The notes: generated from the letters alone by a model not told the origin. 64,000 bases of DNA from Patescibacteria group bacterium UBA4787 (GCA_002402995.1 DHGX01000001.1:12850-76849), one strand, 5' to 3'. Positions 4,862-56,269 are shown, counted from the stretch's first letter. Made by a program: numbers and translations.

Positions 4862-4945
4862 AATAAAGGGTGTCAACCCTGTGTTATCCGCGCTCGCTCG
4901 GAAGAGTAAATAAATTTACTCTTCACTCATTCGCTTGATAATAAA
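4862..4945 (+). repeat. family A intergenic repeat, short form, copy A1
   Basis: aataaagggtgtcaaccctgtgttatccgcgctcgctcggaagagtaaataaatttactcttcactcattcgcttgataataaa. Inner palindrome gaagagtaaat/atttactcttc. Overlaps the HAD gene stop. Confidence 0.8.
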
Positions 4946-5595
4946 TTTTTTACCAATTGCGACATCTCCTGAAAATCTCTAACAATATAATCGGCGCCGG
5001 CCTTTTTAAGTTTATTTCTCGAGAACGTGTGAGTAATACCAATTACTATACAACCAGCTCTTTTGGCCGAAATCACTCCGTTAACCGAATCTTCCACAAC
5101 CAAGCATCTCGCGGACGGAATCCTAAGTTTTTTGACCGTTTTTAAATATGGCTCCGGGTCTGGCTTGCCGTTGACAATATCCTCCACCGTTATAACCAAA
5201 TCAAAAAAACTATGAAGCGCGAATTTATCAAAAACCATTTTTTGCGACCGCTTATGACCCGATGTTGTTAGCGCTAATTTATCAAACATTTTTCTAGCTC
5301 GCTTAATAAACAACATGGCTCCCGGGAAAAGTTTAATACTTGAAGAAGCGATTTTGACATAGGTATTCTTTTCATAAGAAATCAATTCCTGAACTCTTAA
5401 TGGCCGCTTGGCGAAATTTTTAAGAATATAGGTAAAAATAGCCAAAGAAGGTTTCCCTTTAAATTTTTTCCATTCGGTTAATGGAACCTTTATGTTATAT
5501 TTTTTCAAAACTAATAATTCTGCTTTCTGGTGAAGCGGCTCAGAATCAGTCAGCACGCCGTCCATATCAAAGATAATCGCCTTAAGTAATGACAT
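4927..5595 (-). CDS. HAD-superfamily hydrolase (beta-phosphoglucomutase-like)
   Basis: N-terminal IIFDMDGVLTDSE HAD motif I and a C-terminal VEDSVNG motif. The last codons and stop lie inside a family-A repeat. Confidence 0.75.
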   Translation of the reverse strand: MSLLKAIIFDMDGVLTDSEPLHQKAELLVLKKYNIKVPLTEWKKFKGKPSLAIFTYILKNFAKRPLRVQELISYEKNTYVKIASSSIKLFPGAMLFIKRARKMFDKLALTTSGHKRSQKMVFDKFALHSFFDLVITVEDIVNGKPDPEPYLKTVKKLRIPSARCLVVEDSVNGVISAKRAGCIVIGITHTFSRNKLKKAGADYIVRDFQEMSQLVKNLLSSE

Positions 5596-5608
5596 ATTAT
5601 TTCTTGGC

Positions 5609-5724
5609 TAATAAAGGATATTAAGCCCTGTGTTTGTTTCGCTCGCCCCGCCTTGACTCGCATCGGCGAGGCAGGTCGGAAAAGCAAATTCATTTGCTTT
5701 TCCCTCACTTGCTCACAAATAAAA
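5609..5724 (+). repeat. family A intergenic repeat, long form, copy A2
   Basis: Near-identical to 11239-11353. Lies between the HAD gene start and the methyltransferase gene stop. Confidence 0.8.
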
Positions 5725-6406
5725 TTTGATTAATCCAATTATTTTTCTCTTTAACAAAAACCTCTTTTTCAATATTGAAGGCCGTTTCAGTTAAAACTTT
5801 TCTTACTTCTTCCGGCCGGTGATAATACGATTCAATTTTAATCGAACCCCCTCTAGTGTCAACCTTCGGTGATCCTTTTTGATTAATATTTGTTAACAAA
5901 AAAAGGCCGTCGTTCTTCAAGATGCGATAAACTTCATTAAAATATTTAGTTAAATCCTTCAAATGAATGATCAAAAAAGTCGAAACAACTAAATCAAAAC
6001 TTTTGTCCTTAAACAACAAATTTTCCGCATCGCCAATGATTATTTTAATCAAAAGATTTTTACGATGCAAAACCTCCAACATTTTTCTAGAAACATCCAA
6101 AGCCGTTACCTTAGCGCCTTTTTGAGCTAAAATATTAGTTAAACGGCCCGTGCCCGCGCCGATATCCAGAACCTCCTTATTTTTTATTTCACCCAATAAT
6201 TCAAAAATTTTTCCTTGTTCAAAACTATTTAAATATTTTTCTTTCTGATCATAAATATCCGCGGCTAAATTATAGCCGCTCTTTGAATCTAAAATTTTTA
6301 TTTTCTTTTTAGACAATTTGAATATATGGTTTTTATTTAGTATCTTCTGTCGTGTCTCGCACAATGCCTTGATGATTAGACCTAAAGCAACATTCTCTGC
6401 CGACAC
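5705..6406 (-). CDS. class I SAM-dependent methyltransferase
   Basis: VLDIGAGTGRLT glycine-rich SAM-binding motif. The annotated N-terminus overlaps the CDF transporter gene end by ~70 bp, so the real start is likely downstream. Confidence 0.65.
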   Translation of the reverse strand: MSAENVALGLIIKALCETRQKILNKNHIFKLSKKKIKILDSKSGYNLAADIYDQKEKYLNSFEQGKIFELLGEIKNKEVLDIGAGTGRLTNILAQKGAKVTALDVSRKMLEVLHRKNLLIKIIIGDAENLLFKDKSFDLVVSTFLIIHLKDLTKYFNEVYRILKNDGLFLLTNINQKGSPKVDTRGGSIKIESYYHRPEEVRKVLTETAFNIEKEVFVKEKNNWINQILFVSK

Positions 6407-7244: not shown

Positions 7245-7291
7245 AACGTATTTTAACCATATCTAATTAATTTCTGATGGGCGACGAAAAA

Positions 7292-8059: not shown

Positions 8060-8179
8060 AAAATTAAATAATTCTTATATTAACTTGTATTAAAGGGATG
8101 TATAACGGATTCTGAAAACTGGCGGTACCTGTTTGAAAATATCCCTGTCTACCGGTAGGCAGGCGAACTTTTTTTGACG

Positions 8180-8345
8180 AAAATCCGGATTGCGAACTTT
8201 GGCGCTCCGCTCCGCCGCCCCGCTCGCTGACGCTCGCCGCCCCGCAAAAAAGTTTTCTTCACATTTTCGGATTTGCGCGCGCCGATTTTTTCGGCGACGG
8301 CAATTTTTCGTGCCAGCAAAGCTGGCGCACCGCCTATTTCTTTCC
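8180..8345 (+). repeat. GC-rich repeat family B copy 1 (core hairpin GCCAGCAAAGCTGGC)
   Basis: Shares tcgtgccagcaaagctggcgc(a/g)ccgc with 33595-33620. Sits in an otherwise AT-rich intergenic region. Confidence 0.6.
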
Positions 8346-8520: not shown

Positions 8521-8611
8521 TGATAAAGGGTATTAAGCTCTGTGTTGCCGTCGCTCGCTCGGAAGCTAAAAATACTGTTTTTTTTGCTTCACTCACTTGC
8601 TCGGCAATAAA
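8521..8611 (+). repeat. family A intergenic repeat, copy A3
   Basis: tgataaagggtattaagctctgtgtt...gctcgctcgg...cttcactcacttgctcggcaataaaa. Overlaps the stop of the DEAD-box helicase gene. Confidence 0.75.
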
Positions 8612-9923
8612 ATCGGCCGCGTCCATAACTCTTTGATGATTGGGATGGGCGATAAGGAGATCGGTGGCGGTGAGACCCGCCTGCGTGGTCGGAGCCACTT
8701 CGGCGAGGCAGAGACCCGCCGGAACGCGGATATTGACGTAAGTGTTCTAGACCCTGCGGACGCGCTGTTAAAAATTGAGGGGCGCGATGCGGTGGAAGAT
8801 CTGAAACCTCCGAAACAGGAATAATTTTTTTAATCAGACGCTCAATGTCGCGCAATTCTGCGCGCTGATCCGGCATCATAAATGAAATCGCGTGTCCATC
8901 AGCGCCGGCTCTGGCCGTGCGCCCAATCCGATGCACATAGTCTTCGGTGTTGGTCGGCAGGTCATAGTTAATAACCAGTTCAATGCCAACCACATCAATG
9001 CCTCGCGAGGCAATATCAGTAGCAATAAGCACACGATACTTCCCGGATTTGAATCCTTCTAACGCATCGCGGCGCTGGCTTAATGAGCGATTGGAATGGA
9101 TCTCAGCGGCCGTATGGCCGATACCACGCATTGCTTTAGTTAGCCTTTTCGCCCCATGTTTTGTCCGAGTAAAAATAAGTGTCGTTCCGGAATATTGCTG
9201 TAATAATTTTTCTACCAAACGAATTTTGTCTTCCTTCCGGATAATGAATATTTCCTGCGTTACCTGTTCTACTGTTGTCTCGGTAGGAGCCACTTCCACC
9301 CTGATCGGCAGTTTCATATAAGTCGCGGCCATCTTCGTGATTTCGGGCGGTATGGTCGCGGAAAAAAGCATAACTTGTCTTTCTTTCGGCAGCGTATGAA
9401 AAATTTTCTGGATTTGGGGCGCGAATCCCATGTCCAACATACGATCCGCTTCATCTAAAATAATAATACAAACTCTGTCCAGTTTAACTATTCTTTGCTG
9501 GAGATAGTCATTAAGCCGGCCAGGGGTCGCGATGATGATGTGGGGATCTTTAGCTATGGCCTGCAGCTGCGGCCTCATGGCCGCACCGCCAATAATCACT
9601 GCTGTTCTTAGCCCCAGACCAGCGCCGACTTGACGCAAGGCTTCATCCACCTGCATAGCCAGCTCTCGCGTGGGAAGCACTATAAGACCGCGTCCTTTGC
9701 TTTTACAAAGTCGCTGGATCATCGGGATGCCGAAAGCAAGCGTTTTTCCTGTTCCCGTCTGGGCGATGCCAACCATATCTTTCCCTTCCATTGCGATTGG
9801 GATGGCCAACTTTTGTATTGGAGTCGGGTGTTTAAAATGTAATTTTATGAGAACATCATAAATCGCCGGGGCGATACCAAGACCGGAAAACCCATCTGTT
9901 TTTACGATAAAATCATTATTCAT
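8589..9923 (-). CDS. DEAD-box ATP-dependent RNA helicase with an Arg/Ser/Gly-rich C-terminal tail
   Basis: AQTGTGKT, DEAD, SAT and HRIGRTAR motifs. The last seven residues (FYCRASE) and the stop are encoded by repeat A3. Confidence 0.85.
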   Translation of the reverse strand: MNNDFIVKTDGFSGLGIAPAIYDVLIKLHFKHPTPIQKLAIPIAMEGKDMVGIAQTGTGKTLAFGIPMIQRLCKSKGRGLIVLPTRELAMQVDEALRQVGAGLGLRTAVIIGGAAMRPQLQAIAKDPHIIIATPGRLNDYLQQRIVKLDRVCIIILDEADRMLDMGFAPQIQKIFHTLPKERQVMLFSATIPPEITKMAATYMKLPIRVEVAPTETTVEQVTQEIFIIRKEDKIRLVEKLLQQYSGTTLIFTRTKHGAKRLTKAMRGIGHTAAEIHSNRSLSQRRDALEGFKSGKYRVLIATDIASRGIDVVGIELVINYDLPTNTEDYVHRIGRTARAGADGHAISFMMPDQRAELRDIERLIKKIIPVSEVSDLPPHRAPQFLTARPQGLEHLRQYPRSGGSLPRRSGSDHAGGSHRHRSPYRPSQSSKSYGRGRFYCRASE

Positions 9924-9995
9924 AAAATAAAAATATATAAAAAATAACGACGGAATAAGTATCCTTAACGAAACACGAAGCTGGCGACGTGTTCA

Positions 9996-10705: not shown

Positions 10706-10999
10706 TTAAAACTTCGGATTACCTCGTCTCCCATCCTCGTGATCCTTCTCTAAAGCTACAGAAACCAGTCGTTTATAGGCAAAAGCTTTTCCTGATCCTG
10801 TTTTAAGGTATCGTTCAAAATCTCTTGCCTGTTTTTCTGTTTCGAAACCACCACACCAAATCAACCTCCAAGGACGACGTGGCTTGGTTGCTTTTATTTT
10901 TCCTTCGCTGTGTAATCTTAATCTCTCCTTTAAGTTATTAGTGGAACCGAAATAAAAAATAGGAGATTTTGAACTTGATAAAATATAACAATAATACAT
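10706..10999 (-). CDS. small stand-alone GIY-YIG nuclease family protein (97 aa)
   Basis: MYYCYILSS...IFYFGSTNNLKERLRLH matches the GIY-YIG core. The track ORF 10706..11212 extends over the tRNA, so it is trimmed here to the Met at 10997-10999. Confidence 0.7.
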   Translation of the reverse strand: MYYCYILSSSKSPIFYFGSTNNLKERLRLHSEGKIKATKPRRPWRLIWCGGFETEKQARDFERYLKTGSGKAFAYKRLVSVALEKDHEDGRRGNPKF

Positions 11000-11073
11000 A
11001 TAACCTATTGGCGAGCCATTCCGTAGCGCTCTGTCGCTCGAAGCCATGGAAGCGTAGTGGACTCTAGCGAAGG

Positions 11074-11161
11074 ATGGCGGAAGGGGGGGGATTCGAACCC
11101 CCGATACCTTGCGGTATACGCGCTTTCCAAGCGCGCGCACTAGACCACTATGCGACCCTTC
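11074..11161 (-). tRNA. tRNA-Ser (anticodon GGA), type II with long variable arm, CCA encoded
   Basis: Hand-folded: acceptor GGAAGGG/CCCTTCC, 3-bp D stem, anticodon stem CGCGC/GCGCG with loop TTGGAAA, variable arm ATACC-GCAA-GGTAT, T loop TTCGAAT. Confidence 0.8.
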
Positions 11162-11238
11162 CTTGTTTGCCTCCATTTTACTGGGAATTTTGATTTTTGA
11201 CAAGTTTTTCAACTTTCCAAAAAAAAGAAATATATTAC

Positions 11239-11353
11239 AATAAAGGGTATTAAGCCCTGTGTTTGTTTCGCTCGCCCCGCCTTGACTCGCGTCGGCGAGG
11301 CAGGTCGTAAAAGCAAATAAATTTGCTTTTCCCTCGCTTGCTCACAAATAAAT
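11239..11353 (+). repeat. family A intergenic repeat, long form, copy A4
   Basis: Near-identical to 5609-5724. Contains the GC core gccccgccttgactcgcgtcggcgaggcaggtcg and inner hairpin aaaagcaaat/atttgctttt. Confidence 0.8.
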
Positions 11354-11373
11354 CAAGAAAGGAGGAAACGAGA

Positions 11374-20082: not shown

Positions 20083-20196
20083 TTTATTATCAAGTGAGCG
20101 AGGGAAAAGTAAATTCATTTACTTTTCCGACCTGCCTCGCCGACGCGAGTCAAGGCGGGGCGAGCGAAACAAACACAGGGTTTAATACCCTTTATT
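20083..20196 (-). repeat. family A intergenic repeat, long form, reverse orientation, copy A5
   Basis: Reverse complement of the 11239-11353 type: ttattatcaagtgagcgaggg...cacagggtttaataccctttatt. Confidence 0.8.
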
Positions 20197-20539
20197 CTAA
20201 TTCAAAAACAAGCAGCCCACATTTCTTTATTTTTTCTTTATAGGCGGGAAAACTGTTATACATAGCCCTGAGCTCTTTTTCTGTTTTTAGCTCTGGATTA
20301 ATTTGGCTTGGCTTATAATGTTTAAGCAGCGCTCCGATTGTCGGGAATAGTTGAACCCTTTTAACCAGTTTATCGAATTTTTGTTTTTCGCATATTAATA
20401 CTACGCGATCTCCGGGCTTCATTGTTTTGTATCTTTTCGTAGCGGCGCGCGTTTCAAATTTTTTGCGATTGGTTTTTATCGCGTCGAAAATATCTTTGTT
20501 GATTTTACGAAACCTCAAAATGAATACTTTATTTTCCAT
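20192..20539 (-). CDS. ASCH-domain protein
   Basis: MKPGDRVVL beta-barrel motif typical of ASCH/PUA-like domains. Start trimmed to MENKV. Confidence 0.4.
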   Translation of the reverse strand: MENKVFILRFRKINKDIFDAIKTNRKKFETRAATKRYKTMKPGDRVVLICEKQKFDKLVKRVQLFPTIGALLKHYKPSQINPELKTEKELRAMYNSFPAYKEKIKKCGLLVFELE

Positions 20540-29770: not shown

Positions 29771-29974
29771 AGATAAATTTATCTTGAGCTTTATTATTTT
29801 ATCAAAATTAACAGCAAGTGGCAATATAGCCGAAACTATTGACGAATCTACGGGAAAAGTATATCATTTATCTAATATTTTTATCTTTGTAACTTGTTCT
29901 TTTAAAAAAATAAATCTGTTGACGAAAGAAATTTATAAAGTTAAAACAAAAAAACCAAAAAAGGAGAATGACCA

Positions 29975-30223: not shown

Positions 30224-30233
30224 TCTAAGCTCA

Positions 30234-30267
30234 AAGGGGTTGTGAAAAAATCACAACCCTTTTTTTA
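30234..30267 (+). terminator. rho-independent terminator (copy 1 of a duplicated terminator)
   Basis: ggggttgtga-aaaaa-tcacaaccc followed by a T run. Confidence 0.65.
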
Positions 30268-30629: not shown

Positions 30630-30650
30630 GATGAATATCGGCCGAACCCA

Positions 30651-30682
30651 AAAGGGTTGTGAAAAATCACAACCCTTTTTTA
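30651..30682 (+). terminator. rho-independent terminator (copy 2)
   Basis: Near-identical to the terminator at 30234-30267. Confidence 0.65.
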
Positions 30683-33268: not shown

Positions 33269-33453
33269 AATGTTTATTCAATTTATAATTTCAAGGGATG
33301 AGCCAAGCCAAAAATTTATTTTTGACTTGCAAAACCCGCAGAAATTTCAAGCTTTGCTTATATAAATAACGAGCCTTTGAAGGGCTCATTATCAAAAATA
33401 ATCTCATAATTTTAGCTAATTGTCAAGAAAATAAAAGATGTATAAATTTAATC

Positions 33454-33535
33454 GCTCCGAACGCTGAACGAAATCTTTACCTCGTAGTTAAACAAAGTTT
33501 ATACTACTGGGGTTCCGCCGCCGCCGAATTCTTGC
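33454..33535 (+). repeat. repeat family D copy 1 (~80 bp, near-exact direct repeat of 37751-37830)
   Basis: gctccgaacgctgaacgaaatctttacctcgtagttaaacaaagtttatactactggggttccgccgc. Contains TTTACC-17nt-TTATACT. Confidence 0.75.
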
Positions 33536-37557: not shown

Positions 37558-37750
37558 ACTTTTTATATTATAACACAATGCCGTAATTATACCACAATTT
37601 TGAGCTAAAAATTTTTTGGGCAAACAAAAGGGAGTTCCTTAGCGTTGCCCACGAATGGGCGGGGTACGCTTCGCTCCGGGGTATAAACTTCGAATCCTCT
37701 TCTATATATAATATAATAAAAAAGACGGGATATGCCCATCTTTTTTATTA

Positions 37751-37830
37751 TGCTCCGAACGCTGAACGAAATCTTTACCTCGTAGTTAAACAAAGTTTAT
37801 ACTACTGGGGTTCCGCCGCTGCCAAATTTT
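37751..37830 (+). repeat. repeat family D copy 2
   Basis: ~72 bp identical to 33454-33525. Lies between the beta-propeller gene start and the zinc-ribbon gene end. Confidence 0.75.
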
Positions 37831-37879: not shown

Positions 37880-39487
37880 TTACTCTCGAACAAGAGTCCC
37901 TTCGTCGACACAGTATATAATATCTCCTGGTTTGCCCATAATATATTTTACTTTCACCGAGATTTTTCCTTGAAAGTTATAGAATTGATATGTATAAGTA
38001 AACCCTTCATAATCTAATCTTACGAACCCAGAGTCATTAATTATGCCACTCCCGGTATAAGGCACGCCAGCAACAGTATCCCAAATAAGTTTATTATTTT
38101 CTACCATAAAAGATGATTGTTTTTGCGATTTTTCTGTTCTATCGGCTTCTCCTATAATACCCTTTATAGCACAGACCGAGTTTACTATGCCGGGATATAT
38201 TCCATCCCAAATTCCGCCTTGTTTTTTGACTGGCTCCGGAGCGGCGATTGGTTTGCCTTGTTGAACTGTGCCTTGTCCGCCTTCTTTATGCCCGCCTTCG
38301 GCTGTTGGTTTGCTGGGTGCAGCACCAGTTTGACTAGTATTCGTGTCGGATTGAATCGAATTTTCAACCGGCGTGCCCAGCGCAAAATAAATTTCCTGAT
38401 ATTCTTTATCCCATTGGAAAAGCGTCAGACCTTCGGTCCCCTCAGCGAAACCAATTGCCGAAGCGGCGATTTCGTTAGTTGATTGCACAGCATCCTCCAC
38501 ACAATATTTACGGGTGGTCTCATTCCCTGTGCTCGCGCCGCCGGCGCCAATACAAATGGTTCGCTTGGATACATTATCATAAGAATAATTGGCCAAAGTT
38601 TCCGCGTATTTGGCGGCCTGGTCTTTAATATCAGTTTGTTCTCCTGTCGCACTATCTTCGGGCGTGATCTCTTTCTGGCACCTGACTTCGCAACCATATT
38701 GCTTTCTTAATTTATTTGTCCAGCGGACTTTATAGAAATCGGGGAAGTCGCAAACCAAACAGGTTACATCCATGCCTTTGATACTTGGAACCGGCTCAAG
38801 CCCGCTTGAGCTGGCAGCAAAAGCCGCTGCCACTGGATTAAAAGCTACGGAATCGCTACGCGAATGAAGTATGGCGTTTAGCCAATGCTCTTCAATCAAT
38901 AACTTAGCTCCAATTTTTAGCATGGCTTCGCGGTCTTTGTTTGCAATAGCAGAATCCCCTGATGTTTTTAAGTCCGCGACGCTTCTTATAATTGGCTTAA
39001 AAAGATTATAGGCTTTAGCTTCGCTTATTAATAACGGAAAGTCGTCTGGTTGATTTTTTAGTTTTTTCCATTCTTTTTTATCTTCCGCGGCCGCGGCGAT
39101 TCTAATAGACCACAAAATGGCGGCGGCTTGATAATTTTTCAACTCATCCGGCACCGACAATTCAGCCAAATTTTTTGCGGTCGTGATGGCTGTTATTTGT
39201 ATGGAGTCCATCGTCGCCCCTGTCTTTTTTCCCGCCATAATAAAATCACCGCCTTTTTTAGCAGTCGCAATCTCCGCCAGATTGGACTGAATACCCGCCA
39301 CCGCATCATTAAATTGTTTATCAAGGGAAATGGCTAAAAAAACTATGCCAGCCAGTAGAACGAACACAATTGGAATAATTATCCAGAGTAAGCGGCGATG
39401 TTTTTTCTTACGCGCAAACTCCGCACCGCATTTTCTGCAGAATTTAGGATACCACCAGTTGAATTTGCCACATTTTGGACAGCGCAT
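37880..39487 (-). CDS. zinc-ribbon-anchored membrane protein with large extracytoplasmic domain, hypothetical
   Basis: MRCPKCGKFNWWYPKFCRKCGAEF zinc ribbon, a TM helix LLWIIIPIVFVLLAGIVFLAI, and a ~470 aa external domain with a Gln/Gly/Pro-rich linker. Confidence 0.55.
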   Translation of the reverse strand: MRCPKCGKFNWWYPKFCRKCGAEFARKKKHRRLLWIIIPIVFVLLAGIVFLAISLDKQFNDAVAGIQSNLAEIATAKKGGDFIMAGKKTGATMDSIQITAITTAKNLAELSVPDELKNYQAAAILWSIRIAAAAEDKKEWKKLKNQPDDFPLLISEAKAYNLFKPIIRSVADLKTSGDSAIANKDREAMLKIGAKLLIEEHWLNAILHSRSDSVAFNPVAAAFAASSSGLEPVPSIKGMDVTCLVCDFPDFYKVRWTNKLRKQYGCEVRCQKEITPEDSATGEQTDIKDQAAKYAETLANYSYDNVSKRTICIGAGGASTGNETTRKYCVEDAVQSTNEIAASAIGFAEGTEGLTLFQWDKEYQEIYFALGTPVENSIQSDTNTSQTGAAPSKPTAEGGHKEGGQGTVQQGKPIAAPEPVKKQGGIWDGIYPGIVNSVCAIKGIIGEADRTEKSQKQSSFMVENNKLIWDTVAGVPYTGSGIINDSGFVRLDYEGFTYTYQFYNFQGKISVKVKYIMGKPGDIIYCVDEGTLVRE

Positions 39488-39689: not shown

Positions 39690-39953
39690 ACTAATATAGT
39701 AGTAGTAGTAGAATCAAAGTATCAGTAATATTACCTTTCAACTACTTTAATGTTAGACCAAAAAATAAAAATTGTAAACAGGCGGCGCATTTTGCAAAGC
39801 GAAATACGAAATTCGGCGGCGGAACGGAGCATCAAAAAACCCTTCGCAAGAAGGGTTTTTGTATTTGGCTCCCCTGATGGGACAATCTGCCTCGCTGGCA
39901 AGGCGGATCCGCCTCGCCGACGCGAGTCAAGGCGGGTTAGATATTTTTTAAAA

Positions 39954-40692: not shown

Positions 40693-43164
40693 TTACTTGT
40701 TAATAATTTTTCTGAGTTTGGCGATATCCTTTTGCAAATTAGAGGTATCTACTCCCTTTTTTCTTAAAACCTTCTCAACAATAACCAGTGATTTAAGATA
40801 TTTCTGCTGATTCTCCGGCGACCAAGATTTTATTTTCGCTTCCCATCTCACCGGATCTTCAAAAAGCGAATTGATAAGAGAAACGAAAAATTCTGACGGG
40901 TTTGAAAACGGATGACCCTCAGCAGCTGGATCATCGAAAAATTTATTTTCTGAAATTAAAAATAAAAAATGGTCTTTAAAAATTTTATCTCTTTCGTCGT
41001 CGGACAAATCTTTATTTTCCAAAACTTTTTCTAATAACCTCGACAGGTCTTCGCTTTCTTGCTTAAACAACAACGCAAAAGCACCGTGCTCAGAACAATA
41101 ATGGTCGTCCGGGTTTGTCGTATTTGGTCCCAGACTCCAATCAAGCTTGTGCAGAGCCTCATGACGACCAACTAAACGATAAATAACTTTAGCGCCACGC
41201 AATGCTCGACCCTCTACCACCAAAGACCTGACTGTTAAAAATATTGATCTCTCATTTTTGGCGCCGTTGAAATAGGCGTTATCGACATCTATGTCGCCAC
41301 CTACATAAAAACTTCTAATGTTCCAATTATGATTAAAATATTCTTCTAGTTGGGTGATGCCATATGCCGTTTCTTCCAATGCTTTCATATATTGTTCTCT
41401 GCCTATACTCTGAAAGGTTTGCAAGGTATCTATGTCAGTAACATAAAAATTCAAATTATAGGCCTCCTTGTTTGCCTTATTCTCGACGGAAATATTGCCC
41501 ATATAAAATGCCGGCATTTGCTCAAACGAAAGCTTGCCCGCTATTTTCCCTTTCTCGTTTTTTATAACTAAATCAACAATCTGATCTTGTGAAACTGCGT
41601 CAACCGAACCACCGACATTATGATCTTGCCCAAGCTCAAATTTCTGAACATTTTTTTGACCTGAATCGTTATATGATGACTGGAGGCGACTATTTATTTC
41701 TACGCTGTATCCCCTGGGTAAAGAAAATTTTAAACCATACAGCTTGCCGTCAATTTTGATGGGTTGTTTTAATTGATTAACCCCTAGGTCTAAATTAAAA
41801 TTATAATAAATACCGCCCGACAAGACACAAATTCCTAAATTTATGTTTTGAATCAAATTTGCGCCTTTTTCTAAATTTCCTCTTTCTCCTTCGGTTAAAA
41901 GATCGTATTTTTTCTGGTCAACTGATATCTTACAATCATTCGCCAAAACAGCCACATTATTTAAATTTTCTATATTTTTATCATTTTTAATCTGCGCAAC
42001 AATCTGGTTAAGAATATAAGTATTTATTTGTTCGGGAGTACAATCCTTATAGTCTTCAAATTTTTGGGGATCGAAGGGAACCCTAATTTGCGCTTTAATC
42101 GTTTTATTTTTCAAATCGAGAATAGTGAAGGTCAAAATAACATTTGGCGCTTTATCATTCATACACGGATTGGAAATAATCACATAACGATTGTTATAGG
42201 GCTTTCGGGTTAAAGTCTCGGGGAGTAATTGACTCTGCGTAAATTTATTAGATAGATATTCATTTTTTCTGGACTCGCTCCACCACTCCCAATAAGCTGT
42301 AAAATAATTATTTTGTTCGTAAAATTTTTCTAGTTCATTCAGTTTGGCAATTATCCTCGGATCGTCAGAATAGTCGTTAGTATTCTCCATGCCTCTTAGA
42401 AAGACGGCGTTTTCGTTCCATTCTGAATCACTAGTATATTGGAATATTTCCAACAAGTCTCTAACAGAAAAATATAAATAACTGCTGTTCAATTTATCAT
42501 TTTTTTCGACGGGAAACTCTTTAACTAGTCCCGCCTCTATCTTAGAATCTAAAGATGGGGTTTTAATCTTTGACTCCATCTGCGATTCTGGAGTTTGTTT
42601 TGTTTCAGGCTCTTTTTGTCCGACTTCCTGGGCAAATAATTTTTGGGATTTGATTGCCGAAGTCGTAGACAACATTAAAAATAGAGTCGCTAAGCGCAAA
42701 AATCTATTTCCGGCGATCTGATTAAAAATAATATTGCGCTTTTGGGTTGATTCTATCACCGGAACTTCGTTTACCGGCAAAACTTCGTGAGGCGACGTAT
42801 TAACTTGCGCCACTAAATTTTTTGCCGAGGATTGAGCCAATGTGACCACATCTTCTTTCTTGACAATGAAACTTTCTTCCGATAATTTCTGACGGCCGAG
42901 CTTGGTTAATTCGGTAAGTTCGTTTTTATATTTATCTAAAATTTTTCTTTGTTCCAATTTCATATCCAATTCTGTCGCGGCGAAAATCTCAACTAATTTC
43001 AATCTCGTTTCCGAGTCTAGATCGGGATCTCTCGTTACCGCGTCAAAAATATTGTCCGCTATTCTTACAAGCGCTTCAAGGTGTTCAAAATTCTGTTGAT
43101 CTTTCTCCGGTTGCTCCGGCGAAGACTCAACAAAAGATTTTAATTCTATTTCTTTATTCATCAC
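40693..43164 (-). CDS. large membrane-anchored protein (823 aa) with C-terminal HExxH zinc-metallopeptidase-like motif, hypothetical
   Basis: Coiled-coil N-terminus, hydrophobic anchor FLRLATLFLMLSTTSAI, a long Asn/Lys-rich middle region, then LVGRHEALHKLDW...DDHYCSEHGAF. Confidence 0.55.
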   Translation of the reverse strand: MMNKEIELKSFVESSPEQPEKDQQNFEHLEALVRIADNIFDAVTRDPDLDSETRLKLVEIFAATELDMKLEQRKILDKYKNELTELTKLGRQKLSEESFIVKKEDVVTLAQSSAKNLVAQVNTSPHEVLPVNEVPVIESTQKRNIIFNQIAGNRFLRLATLFLMLSTTSAIKSQKLFAQEVGQKEPETKQTPESQMESKIKTPSLDSKIEAGLVKEFPVEKNDKLNSSYLYFSVRDLLEIFQYTSDSEWNENAVFLRGMENTNDYSDDPRIIAKLNELEKFYEQNNYFTAYWEWWSESRKNEYLSNKFTQSQLLPETLTRKPYNNRYVIISNPCMNDKAPNVILTFTILDLKNKTIKAQIRVPFDPQKFEDYKDCTPEQINTYILNQIVAQIKNDKNIENLNNVAVLANDCKISVDQKKYDLLTEGERGNLEKGANLIQNINLGICVLSGGIYYNFNLDLGVNQLKQPIKIDGKLYGLKFSLPRGYSVEINSRLQSSYNDSGQKNVQKFELGQDHNVGGSVDAVSQDQIVDLVIKNEKGKIAGKLSFEQMPAFYMGNISVENKANKEAYNLNFYVTDIDTLQTFQSIGREQYMKALEETAYGITQLEEYFNHNWNIRSFYVGGDIDVDNAYFNGAKNERSIFLTVRSLVVEGRALRGAKVIYRLVGRHEALHKLDWSLGPNTTNPDDHYCSEHGAFALLFKQESEDLSRLLEKVLENKDLSDDERDKIFKDHFLFLISENKFFDDPAAEGHPFSNPSEFFVSLINSLFEDPVRWEAKIKSWSPENQQKYLKSLVIVEKVLRKKGVDTSNLQKDIAKLRKIINK

Positions 43165-44324: not shown

Positions 44325-44488
44325 GTAGTAATTTTTATAATTAGTGAACGGAGGAACAAATAAAAAAAATTTTATTTGATTCCGTAGCGAGCCAACTTCA
44401 CGAGCGAGACAAGTATAGTTTCCATGTGATGGGCTCTTGACTTTTGTTCAATTTCTGCTTAAATTTTGACAGCTCATTAAAAAAATAA

Positions 44489-44576
44489 AAATAAAGGATA
44501 TTAAACCCTATGTTATCCGCGCTCGCTCGGAAAATGAAAATGAAATTTTCTTTTCACTCGCTCACTTGATAATAAA
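44489..44576 (+). repeat. family A intergenic repeat, short form, copy A6
   Basis: aataaaggatattaaaccctatgttatccgcgctcgctcgg...cactcgctcacttgataataaa. Immediately followed by the AGGAGG RBS of ftsH. Confidence 0.8.
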
Positions 44577-44596
44577 TCAAAAAGGAGGAATCAACA

Positions 44597-46375
44597 ATGA
44601 ACCGGAAGATGAATTTCGTCGTCATTCTTTTGGCGACCTTGTTCGCCATTTTCCTTATCAACGGGGCACTTTCCCGACCAAAAGTCGTAACGCTGGATTA
44701 CACAGACTTCTTAGGCAAGGTTAATCAAGGGCTGGTGACCGAAATTACCATCAATAACAACAACTCCGTAGAAGGCAAGTTCACCGACCAAATAAAATTC
44801 AAAACTACCATACCGGTTAATGATCCTGATTTGATGCCACTCCTTAAACAGAAAGGCGTTAAAATCACCATCAAGGGGTCGGGCGGATTATCTATCTTCA
44901 GTTTCCTGCCTTTAATATTCATGCTGACCATAATGTTTTTCCTCTTCAAAAGGATGAATCCAGGAAATCAAATGAAGGGTTTCACTAAAAACGCCACGAA
45001 AGTGCTGAACAAAGAAGAGATCACTACGACTTTCGCAGACGTGGCTGGCATGGATGAAGCTAAGTTTGAGCTTCAGGAGATCGTTGAGTTCCTTAAAAGT
45101 CCGGACAAATTCGCTAAATTAGGAGCCAAAATGCCTAAAGGCGGTTTAATGACCGGACCAGCTGGTTGCGGTAAAACGCTTTTAGCCAAAGCCATTGCCG
45201 GCGAAGCCAAGGTGAAATTTTTCACTACTTCCGGATCGTCTTTTGTGGAAATGTTTGTCGGCGTCGGCGCGGCTCGCGTACGCGACTTGTTCGATGAAGC
45301 GAAAACGAACGCGCCCTGTATTATCTTTATCGACGAACTAGACGCTATCGGCCGCCATCGCGGAGCCGGAATCGGCGGAGGACACGACGAAAGAGAACAA
45401 ACTCTAAATCAAATCCTCGTCTGTATGGACGGCTTTGACAGTAGCTCCGGTGTAGTGATTATCGCGGCCACCAATCGTCCAGATATCCTGGATCCTGCTC
45501 TTATCAGGCCAGGTAGATTCGATCGACAAATCGTTGTGTCAATACCAGATATTAAAGGACGCGAAGCCATTCTTAAAGTCCACGTCAAAAAAGTTCCTTT
45601 GTCCGAAGACGTAAATTTGACTAAGGTCGCCAAACTGACTCCATATTTCTCTGGTGCTGACCTGGCTAACCTCGTTAACGAAGCAACGATTTTAGCAGCA
45701 CGCGAGGGCGCGGAAAAAGTCACCATGAAACATTTCTCAGGAGCCCGCGACAAAATCATCTTAGGTTTGAGCCGACCAATTGCCCTCGACAACAAGGAAA
45801 AAGAGCTCATAGCCTACCACGAAGCAGGACACGCCATCGTCGCGACATTTACTAAGGATGCTGATCCAGTAGAAAAAATCAGCATCATTCCGCGCGGTCA
45901 CGCTCTGGGTATAACCCAACAATTACCAGAAAGGGAAAGAATCTGTCCCGCAAAATCATATTTGATGGGACAACTGTCAATCCTATTGGGTGGCCGTCTC
46001 GCCGAAGAAATGAAGTATGGCAAAGACGAGGTAACTGTTGGCGCTGGCAATGACTTGGAACGAGTAACCAATCTGGCGCAGCGAATGATCTGCGAATTCG
46101 CCATGGGCAAGATCGATTTCCGGACTTTCGGCGAAACCAAAGGCGAGATCTTTTTGGGAAAACGCCGTGAGACAGAACGCAATTATTCCGAAACCACGGC
46201 CCAACTAATCGACAAGGAAATCGAGGACCTTATCACTACAGCCAGGAATAACGCGAAGAAAATTCTCAAAGGGCGCCAGATACAACTAGACCAACTGGCT
46301 GCAGCACTTCTGGAAAAAGAAACCTTGGAAGCCGAGGAGATCAACCAGATCCTGACCTTCGAACAGAATTTGTAA
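44597..46375 (+). CDS. ftsH: ATP-dependent zinc metalloprotease FtsH, copy 1
   Basis: Two TM helices, AAA+ Walker [14 protein letters not shown], an SRH motif, and HEAGHAIV in the M41 domain. 592 aa. Confidence 0.9.
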
Positions 46376-46389
46376 TTCTAAATTTATAA

Positions 46390-46420
46390 AAACCGCTCTA
46401 AAAAATCAGAGCGGTTTTTC
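46390..46420. terminator. bidirectional hairpin terminator
   Basis: aaaaccgctctaaaaaatcagagcggttttt between the convergent ftsH and peptidase genes. Confidence 0.6.
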
Positions 46421-47858: not shown

Positions 47859-48063
47859 TTTATTATCAAGCGAGCGAGGGAAACGAGAAACGAAGTTTTT
47901 CATTTCCGACCACGCCCGACTTCGCCTTGAGTGATTTTTAAAAACAGTCTTTCTAAACTAATATTTGCGGGGGGGGTTCGGTACTTCGCTATTACTGCGC
48001 GGAACGGCGAACTCAAGGCGGGCGGGGCGAGAGCAGATAACACAGGGTTTAATGCCCTTTATT
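47859..48063 (-). repeat. family A intergenic repeat, reverse orientation, carrying a nested ~80-bp insertion, copy A7
   Basis: Canonical ends (ttattatcaagcgagcgaggg ... cacagggtttaatgccctttatt). Inverted repeats cgccttgagt/actcaaggcg flank an extra segment containing a G8 tract. Confidence 0.7.
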
Positions 48064-48750
48064 TAATGCCCAGAGAAATCCCATTTTTTTGTCAAAATGC
48101 GATGGGAAAATCTCTGTACTAAACTTATTTTTCCGTAATTTGCTTTCGATGATTTTAAAATCTTTATTCTTACTGCTGATATGATATTCCATAATTATAG
48201 CTTGAATTTTTAAAAAGTCATTAAAATTCAAACTTTCAAAAATTTTATATTCCGCGCCCTCTATGTCCATTTTTAACAAAGAAATTCGGCTAATTTGATG
48301 TTGAGCTAAAAAATCAGTTAGACTGAAAACCTTAACACGTTGAACGGTGACAAAAGAATCATCTAAAAAATCGTCTACTAAATGATGATTGTGGTTATCG
48401 CTGGAAATAATTAAATTACCTTCGCCAGTTTTATCGCTCAAGGCCGCGGATACAATTTCAATATTCTTAAGATTATTTTCCTTGATATTCTGTTTTAAAA
48501 TCTTTAGATTATCTGCTTCCGGTTCAACGGCATAAATTTTGGCCTGTTTATTTAAAGACCTGCAATATAAACTGAAGAGCCCAATATGACTGCCCACATC
48601 CAATATTGAATTCTCGGCGCTAACAATCTGTTCTTCGGCCCTACGATATTCTTTAAATTTAAAAATTTCGTTAAAAACGCTTCGGTCAACTTGATCACGT
48701 AAATAAACTTGCCAAGAATGATTATTAAATTTGAGAGAAATCTTTTCCAT
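48049..48750 (-). CDS. FkbM-family methyltransferase
   Basis: LDVGSHIGLFSLY SAM-binding motif and overall FkbM-like layout. The last codons lie in repeat A7. Confidence 0.55.
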   Translation of the reverse strand: MEKISLKFNNHSWQVYLRDQVDRSVFNEIFKFKEYRRAEEQIVSAENSILDVGSHIGLFSLYCRSLNKQAKIYAVEPEADNLKILKQNIKENNLKNIEIVSAALSDKTGEGNLIISSDNHNHHLVDDFLDDSFVTVQRVKVFSLTDFLAQHQISRISLLKMDIEGAEYKIFESLNFNDFLKIQAIIMEYHISSKNKDFKIIESKLRKNKFSTEIFPSHFDKKMGFLWALNKGH

Positions 48751-48780
48751 CTGTATATCGTAGCAAAAATTTTAAGATTA

Positions 48781-52071: not shown

Positions 52072-52185
52072 AAATTTCTATTACAAACGGACTAAAATTT
52101 TATTAACTAATATATTTTAGAGCTTTATGGGTCGTTTGTCAAATCGCGCCCATTTTACTTGACGAAAAAAAATAGTTCCGCTAAA

Positions 52186-52275
52186 CTTTATTATCAAGCA
52201 AACGAGAGAAGGGCGAATAAATTTGCTCTTCTGGACAAGCATGGGATAATACAGAGCTAAATACCTTTTTTAATC
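52186..52275 (-). repeat. family A intergenic repeat, degenerate copy A8
   Basis: tttattatcaagcaaacgagagaagggcgaataaatttgctcttc...acagagctaaataccttttt keeps both ends but has a diverged interior. Confidence 0.5.
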
Positions 52276-52301
52276 TAATTAAGTAATCTAACTAAGTAAT
52301 C

Positions 52302-53384
52302 ATGGACTATTTAACAATGGACGATTTATTAAATAAGAAAGAAGATAAAACTGCTTTATCTCTGCCGAAAGATGGAGATTTAGTAGAAGGCACAGTTATT
52401 AAAATAGGCCGTAGCGAAATATATCTAGACCTCGATGGCATAAAAACTGGCGTTATCCGCGGTCCGGAGTTGCAAGATGAATTGGACGAATATACCGACC
52501 TAAAAATTGGCGACATAGTTTCCGCCACAATTATTGAACAAGAAAACGAGAAAGGATTGGTGGAATTATCTTTCCGTCGGGCTGGACACAAAAAGGCTTG
52601 GCAGAAACTTCAGGATATTATGACTAAAAACGAAAGCATCAATGTAAAAGTTTTAGATGCTAATGCCGGCGGCTTGATTATTCAACTTGGCAAAATTACA
52701 GGATTTTTACCTACTTCCCAGTTAAATCCTGATCACTACCCATTAGTAGAAAGCGGCGATAAAACAAAAATTATTGAACTTTTGAAGAAATTTGTTGGGC
52801 AACAATTGCCGGTAAAAATTATCGGCCTGGACGAGAACGAAGACAAACTAATTGTATCCGAAAAAGAATTAAACAAAGGTCAAAATATTTCCGATAAATA
52901 TAAAATCGGCGATGATATTGAAGGCGAAATCTGCGGCTTGGCTAATTTCGGCGCTTTTGTAAAATTCGACAATCAAGAAGGATTAGTGCATATTTCAGAG
53001 ATTGCCTGGCGAAGGCTTGACCATCCGACAGATATATTAAAAATCGGCGATAAAATTAAAGCACAAATCATCGGCGTGGAAAATGGCAAATTCTCGCTGT
53101 CAATGAAAAAATTAATGACCGATCCCTGGAAAATAATAAACGATAAATATAAAATCGGCGACATAGTGGAGGGGAAAATTCTGAAGGTTAATCCTTTTGG
53201 TTTATTTGTTGAACTTAATCCTGAAATCCACGGCTTGGCCCATATTTCGGAGATTTCCGAAGAACAAATCGGCAACCTTACCGAGATGTTTAAATCTGGC
53301 GATGTCCAAAAATTCAAAATTATCTCCTTGGAGCCAGACGACCATCGTCTTGGATTAAGTCTCAAATCGCTCAAAAATAATTAA
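52302..53384 (+). CDS. rpsA: 30S ribosomal protein S1-like (four S1 domains)
   Basis: Four repeats of the G-x-V/I-x-x-I-x-x-F/Y-G-x-F-V S1 fold (e.g. GLANFGAFVKF, FGLFVEL). 360 aa. Confidence 0.75.
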   Translation: MDYLTMDDLLNKKEDKTALSLPKDGDLVEGTVIKIGRSEIYLDLDGIKTGVIRGPELQDELDEYTDLKIGDIVSATIIEQENEKGLVELSFRRAGHKKAWQKLQDIMTKNESINVKVLDANAGGLIIQLGKITGFLPTSQLNPDHYPLVESGDKTKIIELLKKFVGQQLPVKIIGLDENEDKLIVSEKELNKGQNISDKYKIGDDIEGEICGLANFGAFVKFDNQEGLVHISEIAWRRLDHPTDILKIGDKIKAQIIGVENGKFSLSMKKLMTDPWKIINDKYKIGDIVEGKILKVNPFGLFVELNPEIHGLAHISEISEEQIGNLTEMFKSGDVQKFKIISLEPDDHRLGLSLKSLKNN

Positions 53385-53407
53385 TTAAAATTTTCTATAT
53401 AAGAAAT

Positions 53408-55246
53408 TTGATGCGCAACAATATCGTAAAAAATATTTTAATTTTCGGGCTGATTTTTTTAATTGTCAGCGGAGTTTTTAGTTTGCTTAAAACGCCTGGA
53501 AACAAACCAACGAAAATTTCCTTTAACCAATTAATTGCGGAAATTAACGCTGAACAAATAAAAAATATTTCTGTTTCCGACAATCGCATTGATATCACAT
53601 TAGGCGACGAAAGAAAACAATTCACCTACAAAGATTCGTCCGAAGGCCTGACTACTGTCTTTAAAAATTACAACATTGATCAAGAAAAATTAAACAAAAT
53701 TGACTTGCAGATTAAAAATACCTCAGACAGGGGAATTTGGCTGTCTGTTGTTTTGCCAACAATTTTGCCCTTTATTTTGATTATGGCTTTTTTCTTCTTT
53801 ATGACTCGCCAATTAAGAGGCGCGGGGAATCAAGTTTTCAAGTTCGGAGAAAGTCAAGCACGTGAAATTTCGGCAGATGATAAAAAGAAAAAGTTAACTT
53901 TCAAAAATGTGGCGGGCGTTAAGGAAGCCAAACAAGAATTATTGGAAATTGTGGAATTCTTGAAACGTCCAAAAAAATTCATCGCCTTAGGCGCCAAAAT
54001 ACCCAAAGGTGTTTTATTGGTTGGCCAGCCAGGTACCGGTAAAACCTTACTTGCTCGAGCAGTGGCCGGTGAAGCCAATGTTCCGTTTTTCCATATTTCC
54101 GGATCGGAATTCGTGGAAATGTTCGTCGGCGTCGGTGCGTCCCGCGTACGCGATCTTTTCAAAAAAGCTAAAAGAAATTTGCCTTGTATAATCTTTATTG
54201 ACGAATTAGACGCAGTCGGCCGTCAACGTGGCGCTGGCTTAGGTGGTTCGCACGATGAGCGCGAACAAACTTTAAACCAGATTCTCGTTGAGATGGACGG
54301 CTTTGAACCAAATTTAGGATTAGTTGTTATGGCCGCCACTAACCGCCCGGATATTCTAGATAAAGCCCTGCTTCGTCCGGGTCGTTTCGACCGACGCACA
54401 ATTCTTGATTTGCCCGATGTTCATGATCGCGAAGAAATATTAAAAATTCATAGTGAAGGTAAACCCTTAACAGAAAAAGTTTCCCTAAAAAAAGTAGCAG
54501 AACGCACGGTTGGCTTTTCCGGCGCCGACCTGGCAAACTTAATGAACGAAGCGGCTATTTTTGCAGCGCGGAAAAACAAAACCCGCATTGAAGAGATTGA
54601 TATTTTAGAAAGCATAGAAAGAGTTATTTTAGGACCGGAAAGAAAAAGCCATATTTTATCGGAGAAGGAGAAAAAAATAGTTGCTTATCACGAAGCCGGA
54701 CATGCTTTGGTGGCACACGAACTGCCGGGCTGTGATCCAATTCGCAAAGTCTCAATTATCTCTCGCGGCCAAGCAGCTGGCTATACTTTGAAAATGCCGG
54801 AAACGGAAAAATACTTAATATTTAAAGCTGAATATTTAGACAATTTATCAGCACTTCTAGCCGGTTATAGCGCAGAAAATATAGTCTTTGGCGATGTTAC
54901 TACCGGCGCTTCTAACGACCTCCAAGAAGCCACGAAACTAGCCAAAAAACTTGTTACCGAATATGGTATGAGCGCCAAGCTTGGCACCCGCACTTTTGGT
55001 TTAAAAGAAGAGTTAATTTTCTTGGGTCGGGAAATCTCCGAACAAAAAGACTATAGTGAAAAAACCGCGGAAGTTATTGATACAGAAGTTTCTAATTTCA
55101 TAAACTTGTGTTATAATAAAACTAAAGAGATTATCCAGAAAAAACGGGAAAAATTAGACGAAATCGCCAACTTACTTTTAGAAAAGGAAAGTTTGGAAAG
55201 CGACGAATTTGAGGCCATATTCAAAGAAAAAAATAAAGGGTATTAA
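53408..55246 (+). CDS. ftsH: ATP-dependent zinc metalloprotease FtsH, copy 2
   Basis: [13 protein letters not shown] Walker A, an SRH motif and HEAGHALV. 612 aa. The C-terminal KNKGY and the stop are encoded by the 5' end of repeat A9. Confidence 0.9.
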
Positions 55247-55318
55247 ACCCTGTGTTTCCGGCGCTTGCTCGGAAATGAAAATAAAATTTTCATTTCGCTC
55301 ACTCGCTTGGCAATAAAA
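55232..55318 (+). repeat. family A intergenic repeat, short form, copy A9
   Basis: aaataaagggtattaaaccctgtgtttccggcgcttgctcggaaatgaaaataaaattttcatttcgctcactcgcttggcaataaaa with inner palindrome gaaatgaaaat/attttcatttc. Confidence 0.8.
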
Positions 55319-55339
55319 TTGTCTTAAAATATATGAAAT

Positions 55340-56269
55340 ATGTTAAAACAAATTTTTAAAAACTCTTGGCAGACGGCTGCTTATAATCCTCTGTTTTGGA
55401 TTTTTGGATTTTTTGCCACAATTTTCCTTGGCAACGAAATGACTATTTTGATCAACCAAGCCAACAGCACTCTAAACCTCGTTAACAACGTTTATATTAA
55501 AAATCTTTTCTCATTTAAAGAAGGTCTGGCTGGCGGAGCTAATCATGTTTTTATCGGTGTCTTAATGTATTCTATTCTAATTATTCTAATAGCCATTTCG
55601 ACTTTCGCACAAATTTCCTTAATTTCGAGTATTAATAAAAAAGGAGGGGGTGGTTCTTTCAAAAATTACCTACAAGACGGCTTATCATGTTTTTGGCCGA
55701 TTTTCTTGCTTAATGTGATTGGCTTGCTTATTATTAATTTAATTTTTGTTGTAATGGGTTCATTTTTAATTCATATAACGTCCGTCAACAGCAAATTATT
55801 TACACTTTTTGTTTTCCTCGGAACTTTAATCAGCTTTCTAATTAATTTTATAATAATTTTCTTAACAAAATTTGCCTCCTTCCAGCTCGTTTTAGAAAAA
55901 GACAGACTTATTCTGTCTTTAAAAAAATCGCTAATTTTCTTGGGGAAAAACTGGAAAGATTGTCTATTGATTATGGCCTGTATCTTAGGTTTTAGTTTTG
56001 TTTTCGGTTTGTTTTTCCTTTTTATCTCGATGGGCACCATTCTTCCTTTCTCTATTTTGGGTGTTGTCGCTTATTATTTTGGTTGGGGAACGTTTTTCTA
56101 CGGCCTATTAATGGTGAATTTCTGTTTGATTATGCTTATGCTGTTGGTAGCTATCAGTTTTTTCACTGTTTTCCAATATAGCGCTTGGGTATATTTCTTT
56201 AAAAATAAAAATAAAGGGTGTCAGACCCCGTGTTGCCATCGCTCGTTCGACAATAAAACTAATCTATAA
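55340..56269 (+). CDS. polytopic membrane protein, hypothetical (309 aa)
   Basis: About 8 hydrophobic helices. The last ~20 residues (KNKNKGCQTPCCHRSFDNKTNL) and the stop are encoded by repeat A10. Confidence 0.5.
   Translation: MLKQIFKNSWQTAAYNPLFWIFGFFATIFLGNEMTILINQANSTLNLVNNVYIKNLFSFKEGLAGGANHVFIGVLMYSILIILIAISTFAQISLISSINKKGGGGSFKNYLQDGLSCFWPIFLLNVIGLLIINLIFVVMGSFLIHITSVNSKLFTLFVFLGTLISFLINFIIIFLTKFASFQLVLEKDRLILSLKKSLIFLGKNWKDCLLIMACILGFSFVFGLFFLFISMGTILPFSILGVVAYYFGWGTFFYGLLMVNFCLIMLMLLVAISFFTVFQYSAWVYFFKNKNKGCQTPCCHRSFDNKTNL
56210..56259 (+). repeat. family A intergenic repeat, minimal ~50-bp form, copy A10
   Basis: aataaagggtgtcagaccccgtgttgccatcgctcgttcgacaataaaa has the 5' hairpin and 3' end but lacks the inner palindrome. 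Confidence 0.65.

Follow-up and report, generated by a model that had tools for sequence, protein, structure and literature searches.

A probably mobile family of small modular hairpin repeats at ATAAA sites in the genome of Patescibacteria group bacterium UBA4787

Among the palindromic dispersed repeats of bacteria, repetitive extragenic palindromic (REP) sequences are high-copy extragenic hairpins thought to be processed as single-stranded DNA (ssDNA) by one trans-acting HUH enzyme per genome, with the motif GT[AG]G lying 0-2 nt 5′ of a hairpin whose basal stem is 7-20 bp (PMC6006769). The insertion sequences (IS) of the IS200/IS605 family read a fixed short target by base pairing with an internal guide and are excised precisely (PMC3201880, PMC5027513), and Rickettsia palindromic elements (RPEs) are in-frame inserts in unrelated housekeeping genes, to which they add a peptide segment (PMC10969869). 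Family A, the subject of this study, is a bacterial palindromic dispersed repeat found in a stretch of 64,000 nt from Patescibacteria group bacterium UBA4787 (GCA_002402995.1 DHGX01000001.1:12850-76849), this whole stretch being termed the window. Groundwater bacteria that are ultra-small and host-dependent are commonly said to have streamlined genomes with little mobile DNA; the window has one Family A copy per ~6 kb, placed precisely at gene boundaries.

[quoted passage not shown] A preliminary description of the window had called it a REP/MITE-like dispersed hairpin. That name is apt in the broad sense, but not in the strict one, as the element has neither the terminal inverted repeats (TIRs) of a MITE nor the GTAG head of a REP. 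Apparently these very small mobile repeats, modular and hairpin-forming, with ATAAA as their site, make up a family not described before. A literature search on the motif, and on repeats of Patescibacteria, Parcubacteria and bacteria of the candidate phyla radiation, found nothing relevant; in Rfam 15, the window gave only tRNAs at gathering thresholds, and at E ≤ 1 none of the elements at three loci with 10 copies had a match. L-numbers denote genome and metagenome loci and contigs other than the window; collections were scanned with one 24-nt degenerate pattern of hp1, the 5′ hairpin of the element.

Alignments and a consensus fold give the order of parts as (A)ATAAA, hp1, G, the 5′ arm of a stem P1, ~3 nt, GCTCGCTCGG, an optional GC-rich hairpin, a palindrome P2, CTCGCTCGCT, the 3′ arm of P1 and AA. 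In hp1 (AGGGT-ATTAA-ACCCT, with a 5-bp stem) both stem and loop are conserved, and TGTGTT follows directly 3′ of it. The 5′ arm of P1 consists of TGTT and 3-5 variable bases, the 3′ arm of variable bases and AATA; the stem closes a conserved CTCGCTCG-type loop, after which comes AATAAA. P2 is an AT-rich palindrome of ~10 bp which, like the GC-rich hairpins, is optional and nested in the P1 loop. The core unit is thus one of ~48 nt, and nested hairpins give forms of 85, 115 and 200-300 nt. Over 69 distinct copies the consensus is aATAAAGGgtATTAAaCCCTgTGTT..C.CgCtcgcTCGG...CTCgcTcgCTtg..AATAAa.

The short (84-90 nt), long (~115 nt, with GC core) and minimal (~48 nt) forms distinguished in the preliminary description are all real. 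In the minimal form, which lacks P2, P1 closes a TCGCTCGCT-type loop. The copy at 56210 is of this form and is complete rather than a truncated fragment, with equivalents in L001, L013, L052 and L007. Larger forms nest more hairpins in the P1 loop, examples being window copy 47859-48064 (205 nt) and L003 (294 nt). The characterisation of the elements as GC-rich fits the optional core only, short forms having 33-42% GC, like the genome. A subfamily designated type B, with hp1 in common and a different interior (GTTTTGTCTTCGCTCGGAGAAAATATAAAA...TTTTCTATTTT), is present in L021, L027, L045, L053 (9992-10082), L055 and L059 and is absent from the window.

All ten copies listed previously were confirmed in position and orientation (Table 1). 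Repeat detection in the window places direct-repeat families D1-D6, D11 and D13 and inverted pairs I1-I14 in Family A, while the 5′ motif AATAAAGGR-N7-CCCTGTGTT has eight matches there against 0.10 expected, a number reached by none of 100 shuffles. The covariance model, R1, comprises 27 copies, of which other genomes supply 22 and the window five, and was run on the window without filters. Its 3′ boundaries were set via a hand-curated seed alignment; a search for P1 complements gave spurious AT-rich P2 matches. R1 scores the ten copies at 25-100 bits (E-values of 5e-3 down to 8.5e-19). The next-best match, 33284-33364(-), has 28 bits and is probably an old, degenerate eleventh copy, and the remainder of the window lies below 18 bits. 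The partial GC-core copy reported near 39885-39945 proved to be a 31-nt module.

Insertion at an ATAAA-like site, with the motif present on both sides afterwards, is shown by orthologous loci, at which both filled and empty sites were found; the suspicion that the copies are insertions is thereby borne out. For window copy 47859-48064, read in element orientation, the empty site of L011 is CATTA-AATAAA-ACAAAAC and the filled site is CATTA-AATAAA-GGGC...TTGAT-AATAAA-ACAAAAT. Likewise, L026 is filled (GATTAAC-AATAAA-GGG...CACA-AATGAA-AAATCTG) where L064 is empty (GATTAAC-AACGAA-AAATCTG). One orthologous site is filled in L053 and empty in L055, and a copy beside tRNA-Gly in L041 and L043 has an empty counterpart in the window (~43.2 kb). 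Each empty site is precise and holds exactly one ATAAA-like motif. The end logos read [A 75%/T 20%]ATAAA at the 5′ side and AATAAA[A 61%] at the 3′ side, with background composition beyond. Tandem copies with a single common AATAAA occur in L021 and L035, and L027 has a copy nested in the P2 loop of a type B copy, inserted between ...ATGTAAA and ACTATC in comparison with the uninterrupted L021.

The hp1-pattern scan yielded 20 loci in a species-representative genome collection and at least 50 in metagenome contigs, nearly all of them full elements of the same architecture. With cmsearch, the scanned loci gave at least 81 hits, 69 of them distinct and some without the exact pattern; L037 alone has five copies within 11.8 kb. 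The hosts are uncultured groundwater and sediment bacteria with record labels of Patescibacteria/Paceibacterota or Elusimicrobia, apart from a few bins that bear other, less certain labels, and the GC content of their contigs ranges from 30% to 59%. On the contig with 59% GC (L018), a copy of 39% GC lies immediately 3′ of the pth stop codon. The divergence of hosts is also seen in the enolase and NrdD of two carrier genomes, which are only ~55% identical to the window proteins. The closest relatives of the window are the metagenome-assembled genome 'Patescibacteria group bacterium H41-bin211_1' and related metagenome contigs, which are syntenic with 82-90% nucleotide identity. Contigs of the same species from other samples (L071-L077) have insertions identical to those of the window, with no strain-level insertion polymorphism among them; a further 20 kb of sequence contributed a single new copy. 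A scan of viral contigs gave 0 matches, and BLAST gave no match in plasmid and phage collections.

Copies also occur inside genes. The MurC of L037 contains a copy in frame, read as FIIKRAREIKNEVFHFRANADIKRFNTPFI between ...SSNY and VEACEW..., and its alignment to solved MurC structures (PDB) breaks exactly at the element, an FI/FV dipeptide (TTTATT) aligning on both sides. L065 has an unannotated open reading frame (ORF) of 726 aa, IorA-like by eye, with an in-frame copy (FIAKRAREKKNLFFFSERALATQGLTPFI) in the same antisense frame as in the MurC of L037. These inserts measure 84 nt (murC, L037) and 81 nt (L065). As length is divisible by three in only 24% of copies, and about half are stop-free in that frame, the two intragenic copies are survivors of selection for translatability.

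The relation of 74 copies to their neighbours was determined by crude ORF calling: 26 are co-directional with both, 18 antisense to both, 10 divergent and 5 convergent, so that orientation bias relative to genes is weak. Where copies are co-directional, the stop codon of the upstream ORF is the TAA of AATAAA in 13 cases and the hp1-loop TAA in 7. The latter applies to ftsH-2 (...KNKGY-stop), one of the genes earlier noted to end within a copy; the FkbM methyltransferase (...NKGH-stop), the HAD hydrolase and the DEAD-box helicase do so too, as had been noted. For the last two, and for the methyltransferase at 5705-6406, the copy is antisense and the reading frame enters its 3′ end by 5-8 codons before the stop. 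Comparison with an orthologue supports the notion of repeat-written C-termini, the element-free FkbM protein of L011 ending in ...ALNKTKQ-stop and that of the window in ...ALNKGH-stop; in L011 the stop codon overlaps the next start codon. With the loop TAA mutated (TGTCAG), the membrane protein ORF 55340-56269 runs through the whole of copy 56210. That copy does supply its tail, with a size of 17 codons (after the K-G codons of AATAAAGGG). Repeat-written tails are real and mostly of 2-8 residues, the 17 residues of this protein being the one longer case.

Some sites are occupied in several related genomes with differing contents. The site upstream of ftsH-1 is filled in the window (44489), L011 and L041, with a GC palindrome in place of P2 in L011 and a P2 resembling that of window copy 47859 in L041. 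Upstream of mreB, copies are present in the window (20083), L015 and L046, those of L015 and L046 being short forms with intact P1. The window copy here combines a 5′ half and GC core like those of 11239 with the 3′ end of the orthologous short copy, and its P1 is broken because the halves come from different copy types. Its identity to the 11239 copy is 90%, while the copies at 5610 and 11239 share 95%. The differing interiors at occupied sites point to gene conversion among the copies.

These features may be brought together in the following way. Insertion occurs at ATAAA-like sites, after which ATAAA stands at both ends. The survivors sit at gene ends because TAA-A is a common stop context in an AT-rich, tightly packed genome; there, copies donate stop codons or a few terminal residues. 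Survival inside genes is rare, needing a length that is a multiple of three and an open frame. Resident copies are later partly overwritten by gene conversion from other copies, and any effects on transcripts and proteins would be by-products and not the reason for the element's existence.

With regard to the mode of movement, a folded single strand of DNA is tentatively proposed as the mobile form, which a trans-acting HUH/Y1 enzyme (of IS200/IS605 or RAYT, i.e., REP-associated tyrosine transposase, type) or an analogous enzyme would cut and rejoin. Such an enzyme would recognise hp1, with TGTGTT acting as the guide that sets the site of cleavage and insertion. TGTGTT pairs with the right AATA in P1 and is able to pair with the left AATAAA (5/6 positions) or with a target ATAAA, and P1 brings the right AATAAA next to hp1 and the left ATAAA. 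Single-strand movement is favoured because this pairing resembles the guide and cleavage-site logic of IS200/IS605 and the tetranucleotide-plus-hairpin geometry of REPs. A bolder reading, which we consider doubtful, is that Family A is a new TIR-less, structure-defined and ATAAA-specific element with TGTGTT-guided ssDNA mobility, and that ultra-small groundwater bacteria of very different kinds have acquired it by horizontal spread. It is similarly doubtful that it would be the main dispersed repeat there and a source of new termini and of in-frame insertions in essential genes.

A number of observations weigh against the interpretation as a mobile element and against movement of this type. 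Pfam scans detected no transposase, integrase or reverse transcriptase, and neither a RAYT gene nor tnpA/tnpB, among ~40 window ORFs or the neighbours of the five L037 copies. A tblastn search for a Y1 transposase over 578 kb with IS608 and IS200 TnpA queries, a weak test, gave nothing below E=1. The hairpins at the two ends are unlike, only hp1 being conserved, and the candidate guide is 3′ of hp1, whereas in IS200/IS605 the guide is 5′ of the hairpin foot. Orientation of window copies relative to replication is 5:5 in a small sample (with the GC-skew minimum at ~52 kb as the origin), and so gives no lagging-strand bias. The flanking motifs fit a true 4-5 bp duplication as well as a retained target with an element-borne end, as in IS200/IS605. 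Finally, the sites upstream of ftsH-1 and mreB are filled in all available relatives, which retained function would also fit.

In addition, a small ORF with a GIY-YIG nuclease domain (10712-11032, -) lies beside tRNA-Ser (11075-11162) and the copy at 11239. L026, L043 and L029 likewise have a GIY-YIG homologue no more than a few kb from a copy, but this is too weak to be regarded as an association.

The preliminary description had pointed to compensatory variation of the palindrome arms, and folding and covariation analysis confirm a strong signal. Pairing in the seed alignment extends to 94.8% of cells, compared with 84.2% when shuffled, with both sides changed in 60 versus 16 cells. For the 69 distinct copies the corresponding values are 95.2% against 82.0%, with 170 versus 46 compensatory cells and compensatory change in 17 of 22 pairs; slid controls pair at 42-56%. 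P1 alone occurs with at least eight arm pairs (TTATC/GATAA, TTTGT/ACAAA, TTGCC/GGCAA, TTGTC/GACAA, TTTTC/GAAAA, TTAGC/GCTAA, TTTCGCC/GGCGAAA and TTTTT/AAAAA).

Such conservation of structure with compensatory changes is what would be expected of a cis-acting RNA selected by the host, in which the hairpins stabilise or process mRNA, stop antisense transcription or insulate genes and any spread is secondary. Numerous copies are placed exactly after a stop codon and before the following ribosome-binding site (RBS) and must therefore be transcribed, hp1 on the opposite strand resembles a terminator hairpin with its T-run, the ftsH-1 and mreB sites are filled in all three related genomes, and there is the slight excess of co-directional over antisense copies (26 versus 18). 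Even so, such an RNA element is improbable as the explanation of the family. Both orientations are common, copies lie in coding sequences and within one another, and Rfam offers no match even at the permissive E-value. G.U wobble is not enriched, the mismatch spectrum having 24 G.T against 32 A.C when one fixed G.T pair is excluded, and both strands fold alike as DNA with similar energies and z-scores. Chimeric copies with a broken P1 persist as well, namely window copy 20083-20201 and L024 as compared with its orthologue L010. Since G.T does not exceed A.C and such chimeras exist, the structure seems to matter for propagation of the element and not for host function at each locus. The earlier reading of the compensatory pattern, as selection on structure or templated spread, would thus seem to hold for propagation rather than for a host function at each site.

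The genome moreover has canonical terminators. Strong bidirectional terminator-like hairpins at 30232-30264, 30648-30680 and 46388-46419 (e.g., CAAAGGGGTTGTGAAAAAATCACAACCCTTTTT), which form a second, unrelated small repeat family, show ordinary terminators to be present. Intrinsic termination was rejected as the role of Family A, as only the antisense hp1 fits and copies occur in both orientations. A general promoter function was also rejected, as only one subfamily has a 3′ end (TTGATAAT) that is -10-like and promoter-like sites distinct from the element are often adjacent.

A classical MITE, that is, a deletion derivative of an IS with a DDE transposase, transposing by cut-and-paste and duplicating 4-5 bp of target at ATAAA, is more improbable still. 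Small size, lack of coding capacity and multiple copies would agree with it, and the ATAAA direct repeats at the ends resemble a target-site duplication. However, the motif, present at both ends of copies and once in each empty site, is of fixed sequence and could be target plus element-borne end, and a nearly invariant flanking repeat is unlike most target duplications. No TIRs are seen in the alignments and end logos, the ends being (A)ATAAAGGGTATT... and ...CTTGATAATAAA, and therefore Family A is not a strict MITE. The 5′ end (GGGTATTAAACCC) is unrelated to the 3′ end (...CTTGATA), the sole complementary arms, those of P1, are internal and differ between copies, and a parent IS was not seen in Pfam scans of the ~40 window ORFs and the L037 neighbours.

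It is very improbable that Family A is non-mobile, an ancient, vertically inherited and gene-converted intergenic punctuation whose empty sites are deletions: chimeras make conversion between copies clear and some sites are conserved across relatives, but copies lie inside murC and another conserved enzyme whose solved homologues lack such a segment, one copy is nested in another, an AT-rich copy resides in a genome of 59% GC, and the empty sites are precise, each keeping exactly one ATAAA.

Table 1. Family A copies and related features of the window, with positions counted from its first nucleotide
Feature	Position	Strand	Remarks
Short form	4862-4947	+	96.5 bits; antisense to neighbours; stop of HAD hydrolase (4927-5595, -) within its 3′ end
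Long form with GC-core hairpin	5610-5725	+	95% identity to 11239-11352; stop of methyltransferase 5705-6406(-) within 3′ end
Short form, P1 TTGCCG/CGGCAA	8522-8613	+	89 bits; stop of DEAD-box helicase 8589-9923(-) within 3′ end
Long form	11239-11354	+	Followed by RBS and 38-codon ORF; adjoins tRNA-Ser and GIY-YIG ORF
Chimeric long form, upstream of mreB	20083-20201	-	P1 broken, TTTGT vs GATAA
Degenerate candidate	33284-33364	-	28.1 bits, E ~1e-3; hp1/P1/P2 layout alike by eye
Stand-alone GC-core hairpin module	39906-39936	-	31 nt; 94% complementary to 11276-11306; adjoins tRNA-Leu
Short form, directly upstream of ftsH-1 RBS	44489-44578	+	91.8 bits; promoter-like site 44437-44465
Expanded copy (~205 nt), between FkbM methyltransferase and deaminase	47859-48064	-	Orthologous L011 site empty
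Short form, degenerate hp1	52187-52272	-	69.7 bits; in divergent region of infB and S1-domain-like protein (52302-53384), near GC-skew minimum
Reference short form, at 3′ end of ftsH-2	55232-55317	+	100.5 bits
AATAAA of reference form	55232-55237	+
hp1 of reference form	55237-55251	+	Loop TAA 55244-55246 is the ftsH-2 stop
P1 of reference form	55253-55259 with 55309-55315	+
P2 of reference form	55272-55282 with 55286-55296	+
Final AA of reference form	55316-55317	+
Complete minimal form (hp1, P1, loop ATCGCTCGTTC)	56210-56259	+	39 bits over model positions 1-85

The cumulative GC skew of the window has its minimum at 52100-52300, where copy 52187-52272 is situated. Genes change direction around this point, nearly all being on the minus strand to the left and all on the plus strand to the right, with dnaN at 56527-57660; the region around the minimum is probably the origin of replication. 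The two FtsH paralogues (44597-46375 and 53408-55246) have ~68% DNA identity over the AAA domain, a Family A copy being situated at the 5′ end of one and the 3′ end of the other.

The window also has other repeats. A 77-nt intergenic repeat (family D9) is present at 33454-33530 and 37752-37828, the copies being 97% identical and 4.3 kb apart; read on the minus strand it holds a hairpin and lies upstream of genes, and it has no Rfam match at gathering thresholds. A 46-nt inverted repeat (60931-60976 and 61839-61884), 91% complementary and with arms 862 nt apart, flanks small ORFs. Tandem paralogues of cofactor-independent phosphoglycerate mutase (25212-26795 and 26807-28423) have 70-84% DNA identity over stretches and adjoin an enolase gene (28484-29824). 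Two large ORFs, 35188-37623 (811 aa) and 37880-39487 (535 aa), have no Pfam match, and a further large ORF of 823 aa lies at 40693-43164.

Strains can be typed, and horizontal exchange between these organisms traced, with Family A as a ready marker. For annotation it is a warning that some stop codons, short C-terminal tails and internal segments are transposon-derived. It is also a tractable case of the choice of a five-base target by a 48-nt element without inverted repeats or a visible transposase. If self-guided single-strand insertion is true, it could extend the repertoire of HUH-type or similar DNA-processing systems.

Compared with the systems described to date, Family A resembles IS200/IS605 elements and their miniature derivatives in being without TIRs, in having a hairpin subterminally, in lying beside a fixed tetra- or pentanucleotide and in its precise empty sites. 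It differs from them in that their two ends have similar hairpins, each with a guide 5′ of its foot, in that the variable stem P1 closes its own right end, and in the even orientation of the few window copies (5 versus 5), where IS200/IS605 elements have a lagging-strand bias. With the REP/REPIN-RAYT system and the atypical hairpins associated with class 3 Y1 enzymes it shares a short motif immediately 5′ of the hairpin foot; in that system REPs usually lie on either side of the genomic RAYT gene. Unlike in REPs, this motif is ATAAA and hp1 has 5 bp, so that the sequence does not follow the REP rule, and the closing stem P1, which joins both ends, is an addition. Integron attC sites have R″ (RYYYAAC) 5′ and R′ (GTTRRRY) 3′ of an imperfect palindrome; inspection of the Family A consensus gave AAC...GTT cores in that order on neither strand, and an attC site was rejected.

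The likeness to RPEs is one of behaviour and not of membership by sequence. Both are small palindromic elements of reduced genomes, without a known transposase and found in frame in genes (murC in L037 and the L065 ORF for Family A). RPEs, however, are ~150 bp and belong to another host lineage, whereas Family A is built on a core of 48 nt with nested modules, its 5′ hairpin conserved and its ATAAA fixed, and its copies in the window are mostly at gene ends and not inside genes. Lastly, like the BOX elements of streptococci, the ERIC elements of enterobacteria and the Correia elements of Neisseria, Family A consists of transcribed intergenic repeats of 50-200 nt that are modular, form strong hairpins and can affect their neighbours. 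Terminal inverted repeats or defined box modules occur in those families, which are confined to single genera, while Family A extends across very divergent lineages.

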